Under the pieces are notes generated by a model. The model saw only the letters and a program-made list of their open reading frames with translations. It was not told the origin of the DNA and ran no database searches. 64,000 nucleotides of DNA from Eledone cirrhosa. Its lineage: Eukaryota. The translations under genes and the position numbers were made by a program. Location of the stretch: positions 46,872,001 through 46,936,000 of the forward strand of contig OZ024741.1 of the NCBI GenBank assembly GCA_964016885.1, in the 5' to 3' direction. Shown piece after piece: positions 25,843 to 64,000 of the stretch. Position 1 is the first letter of the stretch, and each line of letters starts with the position of its first letter.

Positions 25843-28713
25843 ATGGAGGAGGTTATAGACACAACACCTACACCGCACGCTACAACATCACATACGGACT
25901 ATTTCCAGCCTTGTACCACAACTCGTTGAAACCCCAGAACCTCTCTCCAGGGTCATCTCCACCGCTATAGACAGGTCATACCACCACCGCCGAGACTACG
26001 AGAAAATACGTCTAACGCAAAAATTTCTCAAACTCAGGACGGCCAACTGTCTTAACAACATCCCAACGCTAAACACCAACAGAGGCGAACAATACGTTAC
26101 CAACACCGAACCTAGTGGCACCCCGACCAACAACACACCTGACGCAAAACACCTCGTCACAGACTTGACAGGATCCCTCTCCCGAGAGGAATTAGACCTC
26201 CTCAGCCTGGGTCCCAAGTTCATATTGAAACAGAGACTGGACGACAGACTATGGCTCGACATAGAAACGAATTTCTGTCGGGCTGCCTACCAACTGAAAT
26301 GGATATCGACTCTCGACAACAACACCACGGAATCCACCACACCCAGATTCCCGATATACCAACTAGATCGCCCACTCTATCCACCGCCCGCCAACCGCGA
26401 GCTGGAAGAAAAACTCTCGAGAGAAAACATTCCGTATTTAACATCTTACGGAAACAGAAGAAGATGGCCCCAAACCTCTCCAGGACACAACAACTCACCC
26501 TGAAGAACCTACGGAATAAGGAACTTATTTACTTACCATCCGACAAAGGTAAAGAGTTCTGCGTCATCTCTCAAGCCACATACAACAACCTAGCCTTCGA
26601 ACACCTTAGCGACAGTGAATTATACACAGAGATCCCGGACATGACTGCAGCCCAAATCGAAAAACAGACCAACTCCATCTGGTTCGATATCTGTAGGAGA
26701 AGACAACTCCCGAATAAAGTTAAGCTCAACTACACCACTAGAAATAGCAGACTGCCCACTTTCTACCACCTCATCAAGACCCACAAGAATAGTACTAAGA
26801 CGCAAATAAGACCCATCGTCTCTAGCATAGAAGGACCCCTATACAAAATTTCCTGGCTTCTCTCCCAGGTCCTCAAGCCTCTACTCTCCACCTTCCCCGG
26901 GCATGTCAGTAGCTCCGACGAAGTTATACGTAGGCTACACCAACTCCAGCCAGAACAACTTAAACTAAATAAATACGCTTTTAGCCTCGAGGTTGTCTCC
27001 CTCTACACTACTGTCCCCGCTCATCCAGCTGTCGATTTATTGACGGACTGCGTGGTCGCAGAGAACATCCACTGCTACGGCCTCCACCCGACGGACATAC
27101 ACCAGCTTTTGTCCTTCACAGTAGACAACACGTACTTCACCTTCCACCACCACACAGACAGACAACAGGATTACCCATGGGATCCAGCCTTTCGGGCCTG
27201 CTGGCCATCACCTACATGAACCAGCTAGAATGGCGAGCCCTCAACACCTGCCATTCCCATGCATTCTTCACCCGATATGTAGATGACATACTCATCCTTA
27301 CATCATCCCGTGAGGAGGCAGAGAAAATATACACAACATTCTCCAGCATGGACGCCAGTATAAAGTTCAGCATGGAACACCCCAATGACCGCGGATCCCT
27401 ATCCCTACTGGACTTCCAACTCAGGGTAACAGAGGAAGGCAACATCCACACCTGCTTCTATAAAAAATCCGCCAGCAGGGACCTGTTCGTACATTTCAGA
27501 TTGGCCCTCCCACTCGGTGCCAAGTTCGGATACATAAAGAACGAACTGGCACGTATCAAGAACAAATGCACCGACGCCAGAGACCGAGACACACACACCA
27601 CACATTTCCTGGAAGTACTCAAACTGAACGGATACACGACATCCACCACAAACCGTGCCAGAAAGAACAGAGGACACCACACCCGAGGCACTAACACTTG
27701 CTTCCTGAAGCTCCCACACTTCAGTGAAGAAACAACAACAGCCATCCGCAGAGCCATCAGACGAGAGGGACTGGATATCCAACTGGCCCACTCGGGTCCT
27801 TCTCTACGCGGACGGCTGGCCAAGAGACACTCCACCAGACATGACAACTGCTGCAGACTAGCCAACTGCCCCATCAACGACACAGACCTATGCCACCAGG
27901 CTTACGTAGTATACAGACTAGAGTGTGACAAATGCAACAACTTCTACGTAGGTAGCACCACCAGACCACTCCACATAAGAATAAAAGAACCCCTCAATAC
28001 TAACGCTTCCTCATTTAAGAAACACCGATAAAAACATAACAGTTAGGATAGAAACTAAGGAAAGAAACCTCGGCAATCTTAGAATTAAGGAAGCACTTAT
28101 TATAGATAAAACACATCCACCAATCAATAATAGACTAGAGCTCAACACCCAATTTATAACCTGATAAGGCCTCTAGCCCTATATTTACACACCCCACACA
28201 CGCACGCGCACACGCTTACACCTCCACTTATTCTCTCTCACACATACACACACAAAACCAGTTCTAACACCAGATAACACCTACCCCCCACTTTTACGAT
28301 TAGACCTATCTGCCCACACTCACACACACACACCCACATACCTTCTCCCACACACATATACAGGCACGTATATAAAATTTAGAAGAAAAAAATAAAATAA
28401 AAATAAATAAATAAATAAATAAACCCTAAACAAACCCCTCTTAAAGGGAGACTACTCTTTATCCACCTAATTTTAATTCTTTGATATTAGAGTTAGAACA
28501 GATACTCTATACTATTTCCGGTCAGCATGGCTTGGCTAGAGATTTAAGACGCTGGTTTGAGACCTTTACTTCTCTCCGAAGAAGAGATATTATCTCGAAA
28601 ATTAAGGACATTTAAATAAATTCAAGATGAAAGACGAATTCTTTTACTATTGCATTCTTTTTTCTATGTCCATACCTGCATTGTTTTGGCCTTATTACAC
28701 ATATTCAAACGTT
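25843..28713 (+). mobile_element. Penelope-like element (family D, copy 1; possibly Nematis-like), frameshifted RT + GIY-YIG
   Basis: LSLGPKF, PSDKG, RPIVS, SLEVVSLYTTVP, GLPMGS, RYVDDI, LSLLDF, VVYRLECDKC..YVGSTTRPLHIRIKE. Degenerate hammerhead-like CCGAAGA..GAAA at ~28575-28605. Confidence 0.9.
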
Positions 28714-52998: not shown

Positions 52999-55413
52999 TG
53001 TAGTAAGACGCCTTACGCCCCCCCCCCCCTGTCGGATAATGGACCAGGCCTAGTTATCTCCCTCTGGTTGAGAACACTATTTAAGTAAGCAGCAGTATTA
53101 CTTTCTCAGACAAGCCACGGAGACAGCAAACAGCAGACGGCCTTTGTACCACGAAACAGCAGACAGCCTTTGGACCACGAGATCACACAGATGTCAATAC
53201 ACTGAACTCCTATGCCGAAGCCACAAGGATAGTGTTGGCCGAGCACTGGCTCATAACTGATTTCCCTTTACTGGTCCCGTCACATTGGTGACCCAGACAT
53301 GGGCGTTACATTGGTGACCCACGACAATTGTAATACATTGCCTTCATTTCAACTGATCACGTCTATATTGGTATGTTGTTTCATTTGTAATATAACAATA
53401 ATAGACAAAATAAACATCATCCTTATTTACATTGTTGAATAGAACTCTCGTTGTGGTTATTATCTTGTCTACACACACACACCCACTCACTTGTTATAAT
53501 TCTATGGAGTACCTATCCTCTCACTTACGAAAATGGTAAATAGACGAGGGACTTTCCCTCACGTCTATATTGATAAACTATCCAACAAGGATTATTCATT
53601 ACCATACTGGTAACCCCGACTAAAGAATTGTAAGTAGCCTTTTATTCATTTGAACTTAAATATTTCACTGTTATTACCACGTTGCCAACCTTTTCGCAAC
53701 TTACAAAAATACACACAAAAAAAAAGACAGAGAAATAATAATGTGTTTATACGGTATTGACAAAGTATACAAAAAACCAGCCAAAAATTTTTCCAATATG
53801 GTGTTGCTTTTCTCTTCCATTTTGCAATTTTCCCGCCAGGACAGGGACATTTTGAATTGCTTGTGTGTGTTTCATATTTGATCAAGAGAAAAACTGTTTT
53901 TGTGAACATTACTGCCCCGCTGGGGATACACATGCCTTACTTTTTTTCTAAGTGATTTTTAGCCACAGGCTACTATTGTTGATATCCAACGTGGATATAT
54001 TCTAAAACAAACATTTTTTTTTTTTCTTTCTCCTTTTCTCGGGTTATATGATTTGGCTTGCCCGTTGAAGCAACACAAGGGGACAGACGTTGAAGGAAAA
54101 AAATTTTTTTTTTAAAATATATATATGTACTTTGCTATTTCCTAATGTTTTGAATGTCTGTTTCTTTTTGACCTTTGATTTTTTTATTCTATTTTGGGTG
54201 TTTACTTTTCCCTGTATGAGGGAACATTAATTGCTGTTTCTATTTTTTTTTTTAGTCGTTTCACAATGAATACGCCACATTTGCCCGCCTTTACTGGAAA
54301 CCCTAAGCTGTGGTTCGCCCAGCTACAGGCGTATTTTACGGTCTGTAAGACCGAGTCTGACCAGCGCCTCGCTGTCTTGATTAGCGGACTTCCCCCTAAT
54401 TTAACAGATTCGGTCCAAGACCTAATTACAGACCCCCCCCCCCCCCTCTGACTTAATGTATGATTCTTTAAAAGGCGAGATCTTGAGAAGGAACTGTAAA
54501 TCGGTAGAGAGTCGTTTTCGGTCATTGATCGAGGACGAACGACTAGGTGACAGAACCCCTACCGCTTTTCTCCGGCATTTGCGGGAATTGAGTCATTCCC
54601 AAGATCAGGATAGTCCTTTCCTGAAGCAATTGTTCTTCTCTCGCCTACCTCAAGAGGTACAGGCGATCCTAGCCCATATGCTAGAGTTAAACACACTCGA
54701 CCACATTGCTGTCTCTGCCGACAAAATAGTAGAAGTGACGAGAGAGACACTTCGAAGCAAAAGTACGTTGCTTCTTCTTCTCTTCCTCAATCACGCTCAT
54801 CAGCGAGTGATGCGAAGTTGGTCAAAACTATGGAAGCCATGACTCGTCAAATGGCGGAGTTGTGCCAGGAACTCAGGTCTTTTGGACGGCAGAGGAGCCG
54901 CTCACGATCTTATTCAACTCCTCGCCGCCGTAGCCGTTCTAAATCTTCAAATCCATCATATTGTTATTACCATGACAAATATGGTGACAAAGCCCCCCGT
55001 TGTAGGCCTCCTTGTGCTTACAAGGGAAACGACGACCAGAGTCACTAACGGCAGATAGTGCGCTCTGCGAAACATCATCCAACCGCCACTTTTTTATTGA
55101 GGACCTGCTATCAGGTAGAGCCGTTCTGGTTGACACAGGTGCAACTTGTTCAATATGGCCTGTGTGTTGTATAAAGGAGACTCACCCTGAGTCACCTATT
55201 GAGTTGCAGGGAGTAAATTGTTCGCCCATTCGAACCTTCGGACAAATCTCGCTACCTTTGCAGTTCCGTAATCTGCGGCGTGAGTTTAAATGGATTTTTA
55301 CTGTCGATGCCTTGCCATATCCGATTTTAGGCGCGGATTTTCTCCACCATTTTTCATTGACGGTGGACCTCCGTCGTAAATGCCTAATTGATGACATCAC
55401 TGGTTTTTCTGTT
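52999..55413 (+). mobile_element. Ty3/Gypsy LTR retrotransposon (CsRn1-clade-like): 5' LTR, PBS, gag, protease; 3'-truncated
   Basis: LTR starts TGTAGT. tRNA-Trp-like PBS TGGTAACCCCGAC at 53608-53620. Frameshifted gag from 54266 (LPAF..PKLWFAQ, LGDRTP, CHCC motif CYYHDKYGDKAPRCRPPC). -1 slippery site GGGAAAC at 55024-55030. Protease LVDTGA, ILGADFL. Confidence 0.88.
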
Positions 55414-56790
55414 GTTAAAACTAATGTAGGCAAAAAATTCCTAGAGCTCTTAGATAAACATTTCCCTAGAACACATAGATACTATAAGATCTTCAATAGA
55501 AACTGTGTCAAAATTAGCTACTCATGCGGTCCCCCTATTAAATCTTATATCATCAACAAAAAATCACCTAGAGAACATCAAAATTGCTCCTGGAGAGTCA
55601 AAAGTGAATGCCCATTACAAGGTAAATGCAACACCAAAGCCATTGTATATGCGGCTAAAGTGACAACCATCAGCAACAACCAACCAGCTTCCAGTGAACG
55701 ATATGTGGGTATGACACAAGACAAATTCAAAACGCGTTATTACTCACATGTCGCATCCTTCCGACATCCAGAAAAAAGATTCACAACAGTTCTGGCTAGC
55801 AGAATATGGGATTGAAAGACCAAGGTATCCAATATAAATTGGATTGGTCAATTTTGAACCAATCTAAAGAATATGCAAGAGGAACCAGAAAATGCACACT
55901 CTGCATAAATGAAAAATATTGGATTTTACAAAACCTTAAATCACCAAAAACCTGCCTAAATACAAAGACAGAAATGTTCACCAGTTGCCCACACATGAAA
56001 TCACACTTGCTTTCCAGCTCATATAAACTTAACTCACTTTCAGATACTTATCCTCCATAAGCTCTTATTCTTCACTTAAATTATTCTCTCTAAAGACTAC
56101 TCTTTCTGATTTACTTTCATTTTCAACCTTATTATTAATTTTATTTTTATTTTTATTTTTATTTTTACTTCACATCCACTAGTAACCCCCCCCCCCCTTT
56201 ATTCTTTGATTCACTTACCTAATATCTTCACATTCCACATTTACTTCCCTATTTTCTTTACTACCTGATTACACAAGTCACTTGCGTTTTCCACTCCAGA
56301 TATTTTCTGTTATTTCGCAGCCAATTTTATATTTTTATACTATGTATTTATGTGTCTGAGCGTCTTTATGTGTGTATACGTTCTGTATATGTACACGAAC
56401 GCTTCCGCATGTGCGCGTGCGTGCGTGTATATATATGTGTATGTATGTGTGTTTCTTTATATCTGTGTTTTTATATCTACGTTTTTTACATTCTTATTTT
56501 TATGTGTGTGCATGTAAGCGGGTCAATGTACGTGAATATGTATGTGTGTATGTGTATATATATATATACATATTTGCATTTCTTGAGACTTTCCAAATAT
56601 TTCACTGTTTTATATTGCCTTGTCCGACGAACGAATGAGGACGTTTCTTTCGTATTCGTCTTATTCGGGAAACCTCTGGTAATGAGGTAATTATATTGTA
56701 TTGTTTATTATACATTAAATTTTGCTCTGGTACTTACATAGAGCACTCTTCACTCCTATGACTTTTTTCAATTTTCAACGGAACTTCAAT
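55414..56790 (+). mobile_element. 5'-truncated Hydra-like PLE (linker + GIY-YIG + 3' end)
   Basis: KTNVGKKFLELLDKHFP, ECPLQGKC, IVYAA..YVGMT..FKTRY, CTLC, TSCPH; frameshift near 55810. Confidence 0.87.
56614..56691 (+). ncRNA. Hammerhead motif with CCGACGA core variant
   Basis: ATTGCCTTGT-CCGACGA-A-CGAATGAGGACG..CGTCTTATTCG-G-GAAACC-TCT-GGTA-ATGAGGTAAT; 10-bp stem I including G-U pairs. Confidence 0.7.
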
Positions 56791-57103: not shown

Positions 57104-60100
57104 ATGGAGGAGGTTATAGTTCACTTGAAGCATTGTGTAATGAGGTATAAACGTTCAGCTATCTGAAAAGCGCGCCAAGGCCGGCAGCCAAATAAATTTC
57201 CTAAAACGATGCCTGAATAACAACATCATCCCAAAAACTATCAAAAATTTGCACCTACCAACATGCTTCAAATCACCAGGCCTCAAATGATCACTCAGTT
57301 ACATACAAAAATTCTGCCTAAGAAAACTCATACAACACCTACAACAACACATACGGACTATTTCCAGCCTTGTACCACAACTCGCTGAAACCCCAGAACC
57401 TCTGTCCAGAGTCATCTCCGCCGCTATAGACAGGTCATACCACCATCGCCGAGACTACGAGAAAATACGTCTAACGCAAAAATTTCTCAAACTCAGAACG
57501 GCCAACTGTCTTAATAACATCCCAACTCTAAACACCAACACCGAACCTAGCGGCACCCCGACCAACAACACACCTGACGCAAAACACCTCGTCACAGACT
57601 TGACAGGATCCCTCTCCCGAGAGGAATTAGACCTCCTCAGCCTGGGTCCCAAGTTCATATTGAAACAGAGACTGGACGACAGACTATGGCTCGACATGGA
57701 AACAAATTTCTGTCGGGCTGCCTATCAACTAAAATGGATATCGACTCTCGACAACAACACCACGGAATCTATCAAACCCAGATTCCCGATATACCAACTG
57801 GATTGCCCACTCTGTCCACCGCTTGCCAACCGCGAGCTTGAAGAAAAACTCTCGAGGCTAAAACATTCCGTATTTAACATCTTACGGAAACAGAAGAAGA
57901 TAGCCCCAAACCTCTCCAGGACACAACAACTCACCCTGAAGAACCTACGGAATAGGGAACTTATATACTTACCATCCGACAAAGGTAAAGAGTTTTGTGT
58001 CATCTCTCAAGCCACGTACAACAACCTAGCCTTTGAACACCTAAGCGACAATGAATTATACACAGAGATCCCGGACATGACTGCAGCCCAAATCGAAAAA
58101 CAGACCAACTCCATCTGGTTCGATATCTGTAGGAGAAGACAACTCCCGAATAAAGTTAAGCTCAACTACACCACTAGAAATAGCAGACTGCCCACTTTCT
58201 ACCACCTCATCAAGACCCACAAGAATAGCACTAAGACGCAAATAAGACCCATCGTCTCTAGCATAGAAGGACCCCTATACAAAATTTCCTGGCTTCTCTC
58301 CCAGGTCCTCAAGCCTCTACTCTCCACCTTCCCCGGGCATGTCAGTAGCTCCGATGAAGTTATACGTAGACTACACCAACTCCAGCCAGAACAACTTAAA
58401 CTAAATAAATACGCTTTTAGCCTCGACGTTGTCTCCCTCTACACTACTGTCCCCGCTCACCCAGCTGTCGATTTATTGACGGACTGCGTGGTCGCAGAGG
58501 ACATCCACTGCTACGGCCTCCACCCGACGGACATACACCAGCTTTTGTCCTTCACAGTAGACAACACGTACTTCACCTTCCACCACCACACATACAGACA
58601 GACAACAGGATTACCCATGGGATCCAGCCTTTCAGGCCTGCTGGCCATCACCTACATGAACCAGCTAGAATGCCGAGCCCTCAACACCTGCCATTCCCAT
58701 ACCTTCTTCACCTGGCAGAGGTGGGTGTTCAGAAAGTACAATAACTAGGGTAAGAACGGGATGGAAGAAGTTTAGGGAACTACTACCACTGCTAGCTGCA
58801 AAAGGCTTCTCCCTCAGAATGAAAGGCAGACTGTATGATGCGTGTATCCGAACAGCTATGTTGCATGGTAGTGAGACCTGGGCGCTGAAGGTGGAAGACT
58901 TACGTAGATTAGAGAGAAACGAAGCCTGCATGCTCCGATGGATGTGTAACAGTAATATACGTGATCGACAAAACATAAATGAATTGATAGAGAGACTGAG
59001 CATAAGAGGAATCAAATGCTGTGCGCAGGAGAGGCGGTTGCGCTGGTATGGACATGTAATGCGTATGAAGGATGACAGCTGCATAAAAAGGTACAGAGCA
59101 CTAGAAGTTGATGGAAACCGCGGAGTGGGGAGACCCAAGAAGACCTGGGATGAGGTGAGAAAAGCCGACCTTACCCAATTACACCTCTCAAAGTCAATGA
59201 CACACGACCGTGACTTCTGGCGTGACGCAGTAATACAGAGTACCCGACCTCCCACGGGTACAAGCTGAAGCATATAGACAATATGCCCCCACCGCAAGGT
59301 GGTCGTGGAGGTGCCACGGCAAAAAAGCACCCAGCCCACACTGTAAAGTGGACGTGTAGGTGCCACGAAAAAGCACCCAGCACTCACTGTAAATGAGGTT
59401 GGTGTTAGGAAGGGCATCCAGCTGTAGAAATCAAGCCAAATCAGTTCCTGTATGAGCAAGGCATGGTCAGCCGACCAGACACTGCCCACAACAGGACAAC
59501 CCGTCTAACCCATGCTAGCGTGGAAGAACGGACGTAAAACGGTGATGATGATGATGATACTCATCCTCACATCATCCCGTGAGGAGGCAGATAAAATATA
59601 CACAGCATTCTCCAGCATGGATGCTAGTATAAAGTTCAGCATGGAACACCCCGATGACCGCGGATCCCTATCCCTACTGGACTTCCAACTCAGGGTAACA
59701 GAGGAAGGCAACATCCACACCTGCTTCTATAAAAAAGCCGCCAGTTCGTACATTTCAGATCGGCCCTCCCACTCGGTGCCAAGTTCGGATACATAAGGAA
59801 TGAACTGGCACGTATCCGGAACAAATGCACCGACACTAGAGACCGAAACACACACACCACACATTTCCTGGAAGTACTCAAACTGAACGGATACACGACA
59901 TCCACCACAAACCGTGCCAGAAAGAACAGAGGACACCACACCCGAGGCACTAACACTTGCTTCCTGAAGCTCCCACACTTCAGTGAAGAAACAAAAACAG
60001 CCATCCGCAGAGCTATCAGACGAGAGGGACTAGATATCCAACTGGCCCACTCAGGTCCTTCTCTACGCGGACAGCTAACCAAAAGACACTCCACCAGACA

Positions 60101-60192
60101 TGACAACTGCTGCAGACTAGCCAACTGCCCCCTCAACGACACAGACCTATGCCACCAGGCTTACGTCGTATACAGACTAGAGTGTGACAAAT
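57104..60192 (+). mobile_element. Penelope-like element (family D, copy 2), interrupted by an RTE and truncated within the GIY-YIG domain
   Basis: High identity to 25843-27935; ORF 57600-58712 is RT. Confidence 0.9.
58715..59558 (+). mobile_element. 5'-truncated RTE (family A2) nested in the PLE RT gene
   Basis: Matches 49352-50205; (GAT)5 tail. Confidence 0.92.
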
Positions 60193-62732
60193 GAAAGCCA
60201 GGAGGCGCCTGACCGAAAAGGCGAATGAGAGAGTGAGAACTTAAAGTTGTTAGTTTTATAGGGTTCTGACCGGAAGTTACAGAAAGGGTTCTACTTCCTG
60301 TCTAGATGGTGTTAATCTATTGGGGTTGTGAGTGTCACAACAAGGGAGACAACTCCTGCTACATAACCTCCCGCCAGAATTTTAGAATATAAAAATCGAA
60401 TGAAATATGTAGCAAGTTGGCGAGAATGTTGTAACACGCATGAAAATTACGACAAAAGAATGTTTGCAAAAATCAAGGTAGCCAACCGCTCTTGGCCAGA
60501 GAACGACTGGACATCTATCTATCCATCACCCAAAGATACAATGTAATAAAGTAAGAGAAGAGCTCAAAGTTCAAATGTACAAAATATAGTTCACAGGTGT
60601 GCAATCACATGACAGCAGGAAAGAAAGTGTGTTCCAGAGAATGAATGCAGGTGGTTTCTGTTCTGTGGTATATCGTGAAATTTCCAACCTCCGAATGGAT
60701 TTTCTCACAGGGAGAGTGCTGCAAAAATAAATTCTCTGGCTTGTTCTGCTGGTTTTGGTTGTTGGTGAAGCTGTGTTGCTGTTGATGTTGTTGTCTCGCG
60801 GAGTGAGCGTATTCGGTGTTTAAATTCACAGTAAAAAAAATTTTTTCGGAAAAAATGAGTTGCGCAAAGTGCTAGAAATAACAGCCGAAGTTGATGGTCG
60901 ATGTTGAGAATGCGTTGACCTGGAAGGGTCAAGAGGCCAGCGACCAAAGAAATAAGCATTCTGAATAAATGCGCAGTTTTCAACGGCAAATTTACGTGGT
61001 AAATTTTTAAACCGGCAAATAGGAGAATATAGCTTAAGGCTGAAGAATCCTTGGCGAGAAACGTTATCTCTGGCGTGCGGCTATCTCTGTGAGTCGAGAT
61101 ATCTCTGTGAGTTGAGAATTTGTGCTGCCTACACGTGCCAATACAAGGTTAAGTTAGGTTGAAAAAATAATATTTCTAACACGCGAGAAAATGGCGCGAA
61201 AATGATAGTGCAACAGGTCGTTGGCAGCCATTTTGAAAAAATGTGTGTGAAAGTGACAATGATGAAAAATAAAGGCTTCACTTAGCATAATTATTGGTGT
61301 GAACTTTGAAAAAAAACTTGAACGATGAAGAAAACGATGAAAAAAAGGCAATGGTTGAGTTCATCGAAAATAAATGTTCCTGTTGAAATGTTTTTTTAAA
61401 AAAATCAAATTTCTTTTTTTTTTTTAAAGTGTTCGTTGTAAGAAACGAGAAACATATATATATATATATCGTGAAATGCGACAGTTAGTTGATGCGTGAG
61501 AGAAAAAGTCTGTCTGTGCGAAAATTTCACATGTGCGTTTCTTTGACTGCGTATTTTCATAGTTTGTCAATAAAATTTGCTGTGTATTCGTAATGTTACT
61601 CACACAACACCAGATTCTGCTATTTTTTTCTTTTTTCGGGGTCACTTTATAGTTTCCATTTTTTTTATTTTGAATCTCTGGCACAGGATGCAAAGGTTAA
61701 TTCCTTCCACAATCTGGGCTGTCACACCACATGGGACAGAGAAATAGAATTTGCTTTGAGTAAAACAACAAATATTTACTGTAGACTCATTCAAACCCCA
61801 GAAAGTGACGATTTTCTCAGGTGGGGATGTTAATGCCGCTTACACTTATATCACAACAAAGGCTAACACCCAAGAAATCTCTCCAAAGCACTTGATTCAC
61901 TTTATGATTCGATTTGCACAGACTTACATGGTTTTTGATAACTTTGCAGAGTTGCAACAATATGATTTCCTGAGAAATAAATCTAAAGTAAATGCTTCCG
62001 ATTTTTTTCAAATTCAAGAAAGTTCTACCTTCCCTACTCCTACAAGCATAGATTCAAGTTCTAATGATCACAATGGCCTCCTATTTTATATGGTTTCTCT
62101 CTATAAAGTAGAAAACGCCGGAAGTAGCGCAGAGGTATCAGACTACAAACAAACCTTAATCCGAGGATTTAATAACGACCGAATGACACACCCGTATAAA
62201 TATACTCAAGATATGATGCTAAGCGGACCATTATCTAAGATAATCAAAAACGATCAAGTGTTCCAAATCATGTCCGCGATGGACTTTTTCTTGTATGGAC
62301 AGAGCGATCATGAATTGTCACTACTGCGCAGAGGAACAGTGTTAACTAGGTTTGATGGGATGAACATCCTTGAAGTTCTGGATCATTTCCGTAAGACTTC
62401 AAGTTTGACTGTAGAAAATCTAATCTGCGCTATCGTGAATGAGACCGGTGCCACAGAGATGAGAAGGATTATCAAAGCCTTGAATACAGAAGCGTCTTTT
62501 ACAGAAATATTTCCGTATCAGAAGTCTCTGGGATTAGTGAAGAAGTGCGTCTTTTCAGCGAGTGCCTGGCGAAAGCCAGGAGGCGCCTGACCGAAAAGGC
62601 GAATGAGAGAGTGAGAACTTAGTTTTATAGGGTTCTGACCGGAAGTTACAGAAAGGGTTCTACTTCCTGTCTAGATGGTGTTAATCTATTGGGGTTGTGA
62701 GTGTCACAACAAGGGAGGCAATTCCTGCTACA
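60193..62732 (-). mobile_element. Small non-autonomous LTR element; 5' LTR (62732-61648) split by a viral insert, 3' LTR (60363-60193) truncated
   Basis: ~165-bp direct repeats starting TGTAGCAGG on minus. PPT GGCGGGAGG (60375-60367). LTR end CTATA at 61648, followed by tRNA-Trp PBS-like GTGACCCCGA (61645-61636). TATAAAA in both repeats. No gag/pol recognised. Confidence 0.72.
61683..62565 (+). pseudogene. Endogenous viral element: rhabdovirus-like nucleoprotein (N), N-terminal ~290 codons
   Basis: ORF 61805-62590 contains ISPKHLIHFM, IMSAMDFFL..HELSLLRRGTVLTRF and FPYQKSLGLVKKCVFSASA. These are colinear with rhabdovirus N motifs recalled from VSV (IVAAVDMFF..HECASFRYGTIVSRF; YMPYLIDFGLSSKSPYSS). 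In-frame ATG at 61688, with stops at 61745 and 61757. Confidence 0.82.
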
Positions 62733-64000
62733 TGTCCATTGTAATGCAATGAGGTGGCCAGCGGAATCTACCGGTATATGTTGCTCCAATGGAACGGTTA
62801 GATTGCCTTATTTACAAGTCGGTGCCGAACCTTTGAATTCTCTGCTGCTTGGAGACCACCCTGATTCTAAACACTTTTTCAGAAATATAAGAGCCTACAA
62901 TTCGGCTTTCCAAATGACAAGCTTTGGTCATACACCAATAAAAGATGGGAATTATATGCCCACATTTAAAGTGCAAGGCCAAATTTACCATCAAATAGGA
63001 TCACTTATTCCACAAGATGGCAAAGAACACAGTTTTCTCCAGATCTACTTTATGGGCAACGGACCTGAAGAAATTGCACGAAGGGCTTCAGTTGCTAAAG
63101 GAACAACACCTTCTCTTCTGCAGCCCCTTCAATATATGCTTCATTCCATAAACCCGTACATCACCATTTTCAAAACTGCTTTACAACGTAGAGATGCTAA
63201 CAACAATCAATACAAGGTTGTCATTCGAAATGACTGCGCCCCACCAGGACAGCATCAGGGTTGCTTTAATAGACCCCAAACCGATGAAGTTGCGGTGATT
63301 ATAACACGTCCTAATGAGAGCGCTTCAAACCGTGATATTGTTATTGAATGGCAGGACTCGCATCTTCAAAAAATAAATGAACTTCATCCCGCATATGATG
63401 CTCTCCAGTATCCATTGCTGTTCCCCTTTGGCGACGATGGCTACCGCATTGATTTGCAAAAGTGTAATCCTGTAAGTTGAATGCATCTTACACCAGGGAA
63501 AACCATTTCACAAATGGAATTTTATGCATTTAGACTTATGTTTCGCAAAAACGACGTCAACATTCTGCATAGAACACGGATGCTCCTCAATCAATACTGT
63601 GTAGACATATTTGCTAAGATTGACACTGAACGCCTCCAATGGATAAGACATCATCAAAAGGAACTGCGTTCAGAAGAATACGGCAATCTACGTGACGAAG
63701 TAAACCGAAATGATCAAGCTAATGCTTCGGATGTTGGGCTTTCTGTCATTCTCCCATCATCATACACTGGAGGCCCCCGTTACATGCATGAAAAAATGCA
63801 GGATGCTCTGACCTATGTCCGCCATTGTGGCCGTCCTGATCTTTTTATCACCTTTACATGCAATACAAAATGGTTTGACATCCAGTCTCATTTACTTCAT
63901 CCAGAGTGTTTCACATGAAGCTTATAAAAGTGATAGATGTTTTAAAATACGGACAACTTTTTGAACCAGTAAGGTGCTTCATGTACACAGTAGAATGGCA
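62733..64000 (+). mobile_element. Second Helitron Rep-helicase pseudogene fragment (N-terminal region), runs off the window
   Basis: HCNAMRW..CCSNG, FFRNIRAYNSAFQMTSFG, AYDALQYPLLFP.GDDGY, ILPSSYTGGPRYM, GRPDLFITFTCN; stop at 63478-63480. Confidence 0.92.

Follow-up and report, generated by a model that had tools for sequence, protein, structure and literature searches.

How did part of a rhabdovirus nucleoprotein (N) gene come to lie inside an LTR element of an octopod, and can it have any role there? The question is raised by a 64,000-nt stretch of the Eledone cirrhosa genome (contig OZ024741.1, positions 46,872,001 to 46,936,000), hereafter the window, in which a first-pass annotation had placed an endogenous rhabdovirus-like nucleoprotein at 61683..62565.

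Identity and lineage of the viral frame

The assignment to rhabdovirus N was borne out by a Pfam profile, PDB sequence matches and the fold. The frame concerned, P0001, runs for 276 codons without a stop and is, as had been claimed, the sole long ORF in the window that is neither TE nor repeat; by eye, the other frames of at least 200 codons were microsatellite translations, TE frames or antisense to TE frames. The earlier count of about 270 open codons also held, with 269 lying in the viral piece compared with at most 157 in base shuffles (n = 2000). In the profile search that had been suggested, P0001 matched PF00945 (Rhabdo_ncap) with an E-value of 4.5e-15 and 55.9 bits (curated cut-off 26), covering profile positions 29-284 of 410, with the C-terminal third absent; sibling N frames elsewhere in the genome scored 77-81 bits. 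All 12 matches in a PDB sequence search were rhabdovirus nucleoproteins, VSV N among them at 2e-7. An AlphaFold model from a 127-row alignment reached a pLDDT of 92 and a pTM of 0.90 and was used instead of one from a 10-row alignment (pLDDT 34), which was set aside. For this model, Foldseek ranked rabies and VSV N at the top with 15-20% identity and TM-scores of 0.78 for rabies N, 0.72-0.78 for rabies, VSV and SVCV N, and 0.41-0.53 for filovirus NP, evidence that is not fully independent, as the model was built from an alignment of N matches. A homology search with the single protein gave no match, whereas alignment-based searches did; a plasmid collection search and an Rfam gathering scan over 59000-64000 returned none.

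The N piece lies where it had been placed, but its limits were refined: the viral piece spans 61646/61653-62566, an ATG at 61688 opens the homology, whose first ~30 codons are split among three frames. In P0001, Met first appears at residue 49 and the final 7 codons are LTR-derived. A full two-lobed, RNA-encapsidating N is not encoded; the start is broken and the C-terminal third missing, and therefore the full protein cannot be made, which leaves the viral origin unaffected. Judged from sequence and structural model, the locus is a dead fragment of a rhabdovirus N gene. Two siblings open with an AAC start signal, and the T-rich stretch ahead of the ATG agrees with their UTRs in length and composition. 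A splice acceptor had been considered here and was dropped, the sibling UTRs being just as T-rich.

The RNA-binding signature noted previously, GLVKKCVFSASA, is present as a variant of the conserved G-L-x-x-K-S-P-Y-S motif, in which G, L, K and S are retained and S-P-Y is replaced by C-V-F in the window copy and two siblings. This replacement is rare in the 120 other alignment rows (consensus compared: G-L/I-x-x-K/R-S-P/A-Y-S). Because the siblings and the O. bimaculoides protein carry the same or a related form, the variant is, on sequence comparison, a lineage trait and not decay.

The alignment-based search yielded 230 representative matches at E 0.001, five of them at 80-292 bits and the rest at or below 72; O. 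bimaculoides and A. hians gene models are named among the top five. These named relatives and a genome of 3.0 Gb fit an octopod as the likely host, in line with the cephalopod considered earlier. A tree built from 126 of the 127 rows over 184 core columns united the two octopod proteins with the window copy and three siblings in one clade (support 0.97, long stem of 0.75). O. bimaculoides UniRef A0A0L8FVJ3 and Argonauta hians Ahia01_000634400 and Ahia01_001290100, all automatic annotations, belong to the same N clade as P0001 and are 38-51% identical to it. VSV, rabies, sigmaviruses, ledanteviruses and Killamcar virus 1 of mussels have the N fold in common with P0001, but their N identity is only 11-21%. 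Exogenous animal rhabdoviruses have the gene-end/CT/AAC-start junction found in the siblings, whereas their S-P-Y motif is replaced here. Together with its siblings, the fragment documents repeated germline infection of an octopod by rhabdoviruses of a deep lineage, for which the searched databases contain no named exogenous member.

The carrier element and its age

The viral piece is carried by a ~2.2-kb non-autonomous, tRNA-Trp-primed LTR element of Gypsy type (Table 1). The primer binding site (PBS) matches tRNA-Trp, and the element therefore lies on the minus strand; the Gypsy affiliation is deduced from a PBS common with a pol-bearing element at C2:336.02 Mb. The family PBS equals an 18-mer in the RSV PBS model, the whole model scoring below threshold, and host tRNA-Trp genes with a complementary 3' end were found at two of three loci scanned. 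A 172-nt repeat from the element had 1444 candidate places in the genome, of which 40 were scored. Most of ten family copies have LTRs of ~360-380 nt that stand ~1.4-1.85 kb apart, some are truncated, and 4-nt target-site duplications are visible in two. The virus-free copies show an LTR pair, PBS, polypurine tract, short target-site duplication and no coding frame; the longest frame of the internal region (60364..61636) in the window had no Pfam match. The family PBS is doubled at L033:1900-1970; the ~40 nt between its two copies look like the 3' half of tRNA-Trp, as though the reverse transcriptase had run on into the primer.

Table 1. Features around the viral piece (window positions)
Feature	Position	Strand	Evidence or remark
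Penelope-like fragment, cut at the start of the LTR piece	59557..60192	+	94.5% to the copy at 27288-27937
3' LTR, first 171 nt of ~375	60193..60363	-	98.8-99.4% to best family copies
Polypurine-tract-like stretch beside the 3' LTR (label tentative)	60364..60376	-	same place in virus-free copies
Non-coding internal region	60364..61636	-	88-95% to ten virus-free copies
tRNA-Trp PBS remnant and adjoining element letters, left junction	61637..61652	-	family comparison
T-rich stretch that probably makes up most of the viral N 5' UTR	61653..61687	+	inferred
N gene fragment, start broken, C-terminal third missing	61688..62566	+	PF00945 match, VSV N match
P0001, 276-codon open frame	61760..62587	+	AlphaFold, Foldseek
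Variant G-L-x-x-K-S-P-Y-S motif	62531..62566	+	alignment with siblings
5' LTR, first 177 nt with 9 nt missing; outer end at 62732 authentic	62565..62732	-	
Helitron coding region, with the LTR end inside its frame	62733..64000	+	Pfam Helitron_like_N, E 3e-34

At the left junction the family match stops at 61645 or 61652. The viral piece, single-copy as DNA, takes the place of ~236-241 nt that the element would otherwise have from the PBS to an R-region hairpin (z -2.5), so that ~240 nt of the 5' LTR are replaced. This hairpin holds both LTR breaks, that of the 3' LTR in the loop and that of the 5' LTR in the stem; the two are 6 nt apart in LTR coordinates, a near-coincidence that the capture model set out below explains only in part. 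A stretch near 61445, ACGAGAAAC, had been considered as viral leader and is element DNA.

As stated earlier, 2 substitutions and one indel, a 9-nt gap, separate the flanks reported as LTR copies (163 nt compared), but they are partial minus-strand LTRs and not an intact pair. They abut the Penelope and Helitron sequences, with no target-site duplication around the window copy and only ~2 letters common at the 3' join. The Penelope copy at 27288-27937 continues past the point where the fragment beside the element stops, with 1 letter common at the join, and the Helitron coding region runs on beyond the window end into the adjoining locus L043. With rates of 1e-8 to 2e-9 assumed, the 2 substitutions correspond to 0.6-3 Myr (95% range 0.07-11 Myr). 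The young event proposed earlier rests on them, and we place the insertion roughly 0.1-11 Myr ago at these assumed rates, a soft estimate because the LTRs are truncated and the target-site duplication is gone. The history of the window copy is thus partly borrowed from its siblings. Elsewhere in the window, at 54426-55815 (+), what is left of a Gypsy gag and protease is fused to a piece of Penelope; this Gypsy remnant is related to pol-bearing elements beside other N and L fragments.

Sibling sites and a proposed route of capture

The locus is not unique: the host genome search proposed as a check gave 21 N matches at ten sites on six contigs, a lower bound, or a copy number of 14 with a five-fold tandem array on C28 counted out. 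These fall into five groups (the short C25 piece excluded). Synonymous sites are saturated between groups (pS 0.83-0.96, pN 0.08-0.26) and pS is 0.18-0.48 within one of them, so the sites represent separate viruses and strains, from at least five lineages and about eight captures.

All ten sites were inspected. LTR-element DNA adjoins one or both viral ends at nine of them, in one case with 14 unassigned letters between; the tenth, C25, lacks an LTR neighbour. The N piece is antisense to the joined element at seven of the nine and sense at two. At C2:55.89 Mb, C2:47.05 Mb/C219, C4/C5 and C28, comparison with virus-free copies places the joins at the exact base, giving capture junctions of that resolution outside insects. 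Both sense siblings (C2:336.02 Mb and C5:61.19 Mb) begin at the AAC start signal, and in the antisense siblings at C2:55.89 Mb and C219 the gene-end A-run is fused to an element A-tract. Four siblings are bounded by 4-nt target-site duplications, as is a virus-free copy. The rhabdovirus N-P order was found in two siblings only, C2:47.05 Mb and C219, where the gene-end A-run, intergenic CT and AAC start are followed by a frame in the P position; these frames had no Pfam match, and the P label is by position. In locus coordinates, N, gene junction and acidic P-position frame occupy L044:5500-7700 (-) and L052:4770-7300 (+); an A-run closes the viral piece of L052, on either side of which stands a copy of a ~45-nt element stretch.

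Because sibling junctions coincide with the starts of mRNAs and with their poly(A) ends, we favor template switching onto viral mRNA: the reverse transcriptase of a non-autonomous Gypsy-type element switched to the N mRNA, and N was lodged antisense in the 5' LTR (probability roughly 0.7). Following the general scheme of retroelement replication, plus-strand DNA would begin at the polypurine tract and stall at the R-region hairpin, where the enzyme would switch to N mRNA near codon 290, copy almost to its 5' end, jump back at the PBS and complete the element. Such a plus-strand switch would place viral sequence antisense behind a partial 5' LTR, and the sense copies would arise by a switch in minus-strand synthesis that runs to the mRNA start. 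The chimera likely integrated as a unit; its cDNA would have entered the Helitron, and a later deletion would have taken away the now missing part of the 3' LTR together with the target-site copy on the left, creating the join to the Penelope fragment. The near-cap position of the 5' join in the window rests on the UTR length of siblings that are ~60% identical in protein.

The same element and enzyme could instead have copied viral genomic (minus) RNA in minus-strand synthesis, which we consider unlikely. This would produce the same antisense layout and would suit a ~4.8-kb L fragment beside Gypsy pol; the N-P junction with its intergenic CT in two siblings fits genome RNA as well as a read-through mRNA. 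It is at odds with sibling ends at mRNA starts and poly(A) ends and with the excess of N over L sites. The genome search for G, in which no control matched either, gave no match. Moreover, rhabdovirus genome RNA is normally encapsidated. The L fragments lie at four sites (C3:130.16 Mb, C23, C27 and C3:37.5 Mb). That at C3:130.16 Mb (L053:1384-5248, L150/L151) is ~4.8 kb of broken rhabdovirus-type L beside antisense Gypsy pol, with matches at 7e-137 to VSV L, 7e-108 to rabies and 1e-10 or weaker to other families; its link to the window N is tentative. It is 45-52% identical to the best 120 of 204 matches, and in a tree of these, built with no outgroup, it had a long branch with a sister support of 0.32 and did not group with Killamcar virus 1 of mussels.

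Slightly less probable still is that a LINE or Penelope reverse transcriptase made the viral cDNA, which was then patched into a resident LTR element in break repair. RTE and Penelope elements are abundant in the window, the window copy is without a target-site duplication, and a duplication of 102 nt, which an integrase would not make, flanks one sibling. However, nine of ten sites adjoin LTR families that are rare, covering 0.3% of the window flanks and 0 of 400 kb of control DNA, and not the far commoner LINEs, and the 4-nt duplications around the whole chimera in four siblings are of integrase type.

Mobility after capture is indicated by pairs of siblings. The chimeras at C4:337.14 Mb and C5:74.85 Mb (the L045/L049 pair, on two chromosomes) have both joins identical, unrelated flanks and different 4-nt duplications, one of them weaker as it lies within a TA run; C2:47.05 Mb and C219 have the 5' join in common and no common flank. 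From joins shared at unlinked sites without shared flanks, and from the separate target-site duplications of the C4/C5 pair, we infer that chimeras moved again after capture. The C5:74.85 Mb chimera may lie inside a host intron; a short frame at L049:8029-8391 (+) resembles what we take to be an exon of a dihydrodipicolinate-synthase-like aldolase.

With four multi-change codons set aside, 13 of 23 single-change codons between C4 and C5 are synonymous, where 5.9 would be expected (p 0.0016). The last C28 copy differs from the tandem unit at 17 of 687 viral letters and 2 of 1116 element letters, with 8 of 14 changes synonymous compared with 3.9 expected (p 0.019); a third pair gave a non-significant 6 of 15 (p 0.14). 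This excess could reflect strain uptake by homologous switching, or selection. In the C28 array (C28:117.476-117.485 Mb, L047/L048), a 1796-bp unit that combines element internal region with an N fragment is repeated five times in tandem; the array lies upstream of a Gypsy gag-pol, and the TE region around it is plus-biased.

A further explanation, that the frame is a co-opted host gene making a truncated N protein, we regard as very improbable. The 269 codons that are still open, an O. bimaculoides gene model annotated with an N domain and the synonymous excess at the other sites are in its favor, but the frame breaks cut off the start, the first Met comes at residue 49, the C-terminal third is gone, and open frames are expected in young insertions.

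Reads from four of seven runs were compared with 61560-62760. The junctions, for which genomic reads had been named as a check, are covered by a 979-nt short-read contig of run X1 that equals 61616-62594 with zero differences and extends 30-37 letters into the left element and 28-30 into the right LTR, slightly short of the 31 letters that the tool asks for; the frame breaks and the viral-element joins are therefore present in reads. With its place on a 416-Mb contig, this shows chromosomal DNA joined to host sequence, as expected of a non-retroviral endogenous viral element (EVE). X1 is likely the assembled individual. Run X5, a sparse library from another study, had a depth of 0.5-0.6 over 61683-61764 (about one read), and the sparse libraries X4 and X6 had no reads on the viral piece. 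An assembly artefact or contaminating virus sequence, which the repeat-rich region, flanks that show no clean insertion and outer joins to Penelope and Helitron unbridged by the compared reads might suggest, is hardly credible and largely refuted by the identical short-read contig of X1, by frame breaks unexpected in a live virus, by the ten sites on six contigs and by relatives in two other octopod assemblies.

Strand-biased surroundings and precedents

Non-repetitive frames of at least 200 aa in 410 kb of flanks number 97 on the plus and 29 on the minus strand, compared with 30 and 27 in 400 kb of control (four hand-picked 100-kb stretches; Fisher p 0.0016). Merged into elements with the window excluded, the counts are 38 to 15 (p 0.002) and 15 to 11 in the control. 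Local tandem duplications inflate such counts, and the scan would miss short host exons; Pfam matches among the 126 flank frames were to TE-associated domains and one more N, which is oriented oppositely to that of the window. Seven consecutive 50-kb bins from C2:46.77 Mb are plus-biased and two upstream bins lean minus. The stretch C2:46.77-47.12 Mb, TE-dense with a bias that turns to minus upstream of ~46.77 Mb, could also be a bidirectional small-RNA locus.

The TE density and one-strand bias expected of a uni-strand cluster were both found, and the ~350-kb domain is a possible uni-strand piRNA cluster; the intron of a minus-strand gene would show a similar bias. Two observations weigh against a piRNA role: the opposite orientation of the second N in the domain, and a bias that was clear at only one of six other N sites tested (C28, 15 to 3). 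The proposal that all N sites lie in strand-biased clusters failed on the latter. The window N is on the majority strand of the domain, and minus-strand transcription would therefore be antisense to N. Tentatively, at somewhat less than even odds, the fragment, if active now, may act as RNA through such transcription into antisense-to-N small RNA. It is doubtful, though conceivable, that this forms part of an LTR-driven antiviral archive in octopods, in which tRNA-Trp Gypsy elements would capture mRNA of octopod-specific rhabdoviruses, mostly antisense, mobile chimeras would refresh their cargo from circulating strains, and cluster copies would feed antiviral piRNAs; within this reading, cargo refresh by recombination is proposed because copies with identical junctions show the synonymous excess. 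The locus offers a concrete place for testing piRNA-based antiviral memory in cephalopods.

The earlier remark that little is known of rhabdoviruses in cephalopods needs revision, since cephalopod rhabdoviruses and a gastropod N EVE are already published. Rey-Campos et al. 2023 reportedly describe rhabdoviruses in cephalopod transcriptomes, the same host class and virus family as in the window, and rhabdoviruses of freshwater mussels are said to be published. Such transcriptome reads may derive from endogenous copies. Our literature search, confined to main texts that came mostly from outside subscription journals, found no report of a rhabdovirus EVE in a cephalopod genome. In the dog whelk, according to the accessible text, a probable rhabdovirus N EVE has antisense transcripts and 5'U small RNAs and resembles the Eledone case in mollusc host, restriction to the nucleoprotein and DNA form; that text makes no mention of cephalopods. 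Mollusc soma is described as expressing piRNAs, and mollusc piRNA clusters as favoring young Gypsy copies, in the portions consulted of PMC6128900.

The closest precedent is in Aedes. As far as the accessible parts of the sources go (10.1101/127498; PMC5497376), N-biased rhabdovirus EVEs lie beside Ty3/Gypsy elements with template switching proposed, and they cluster in unidirectional TE regions and piRNA clusters. The N bias, Gypsy neighbors, unidirectional TE regions and near-identical copies at unlinked sites recur in Eledone. In those parts, 543 of 614 nearest LTRs have the polarity of the EVE, whereas seven of nine joined elements are opposite in Eledone; P fragments were not found in Aedes, whereas a P-position frame occurs here at two sites. 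The unlinked Eledone twins with both junctions shared and separate target-site duplications are unlike the Aedes copies described, and the piRNAs shown in Aedes have only a candidate counterpart here. The EVE is ordinary in kind; what is unusual is the host, the depth of the lineage, the capture in antisense and the re-mobilisation.

Additionally, open frames of 220-840 aa were observed at L070:5001-9482 (+), L081:4809-7340 (+), L086:3-2072 (-) and L094:593-2593 (-). They had no Pfam match at 1e-6, and some are Penelope-like by tblastn.
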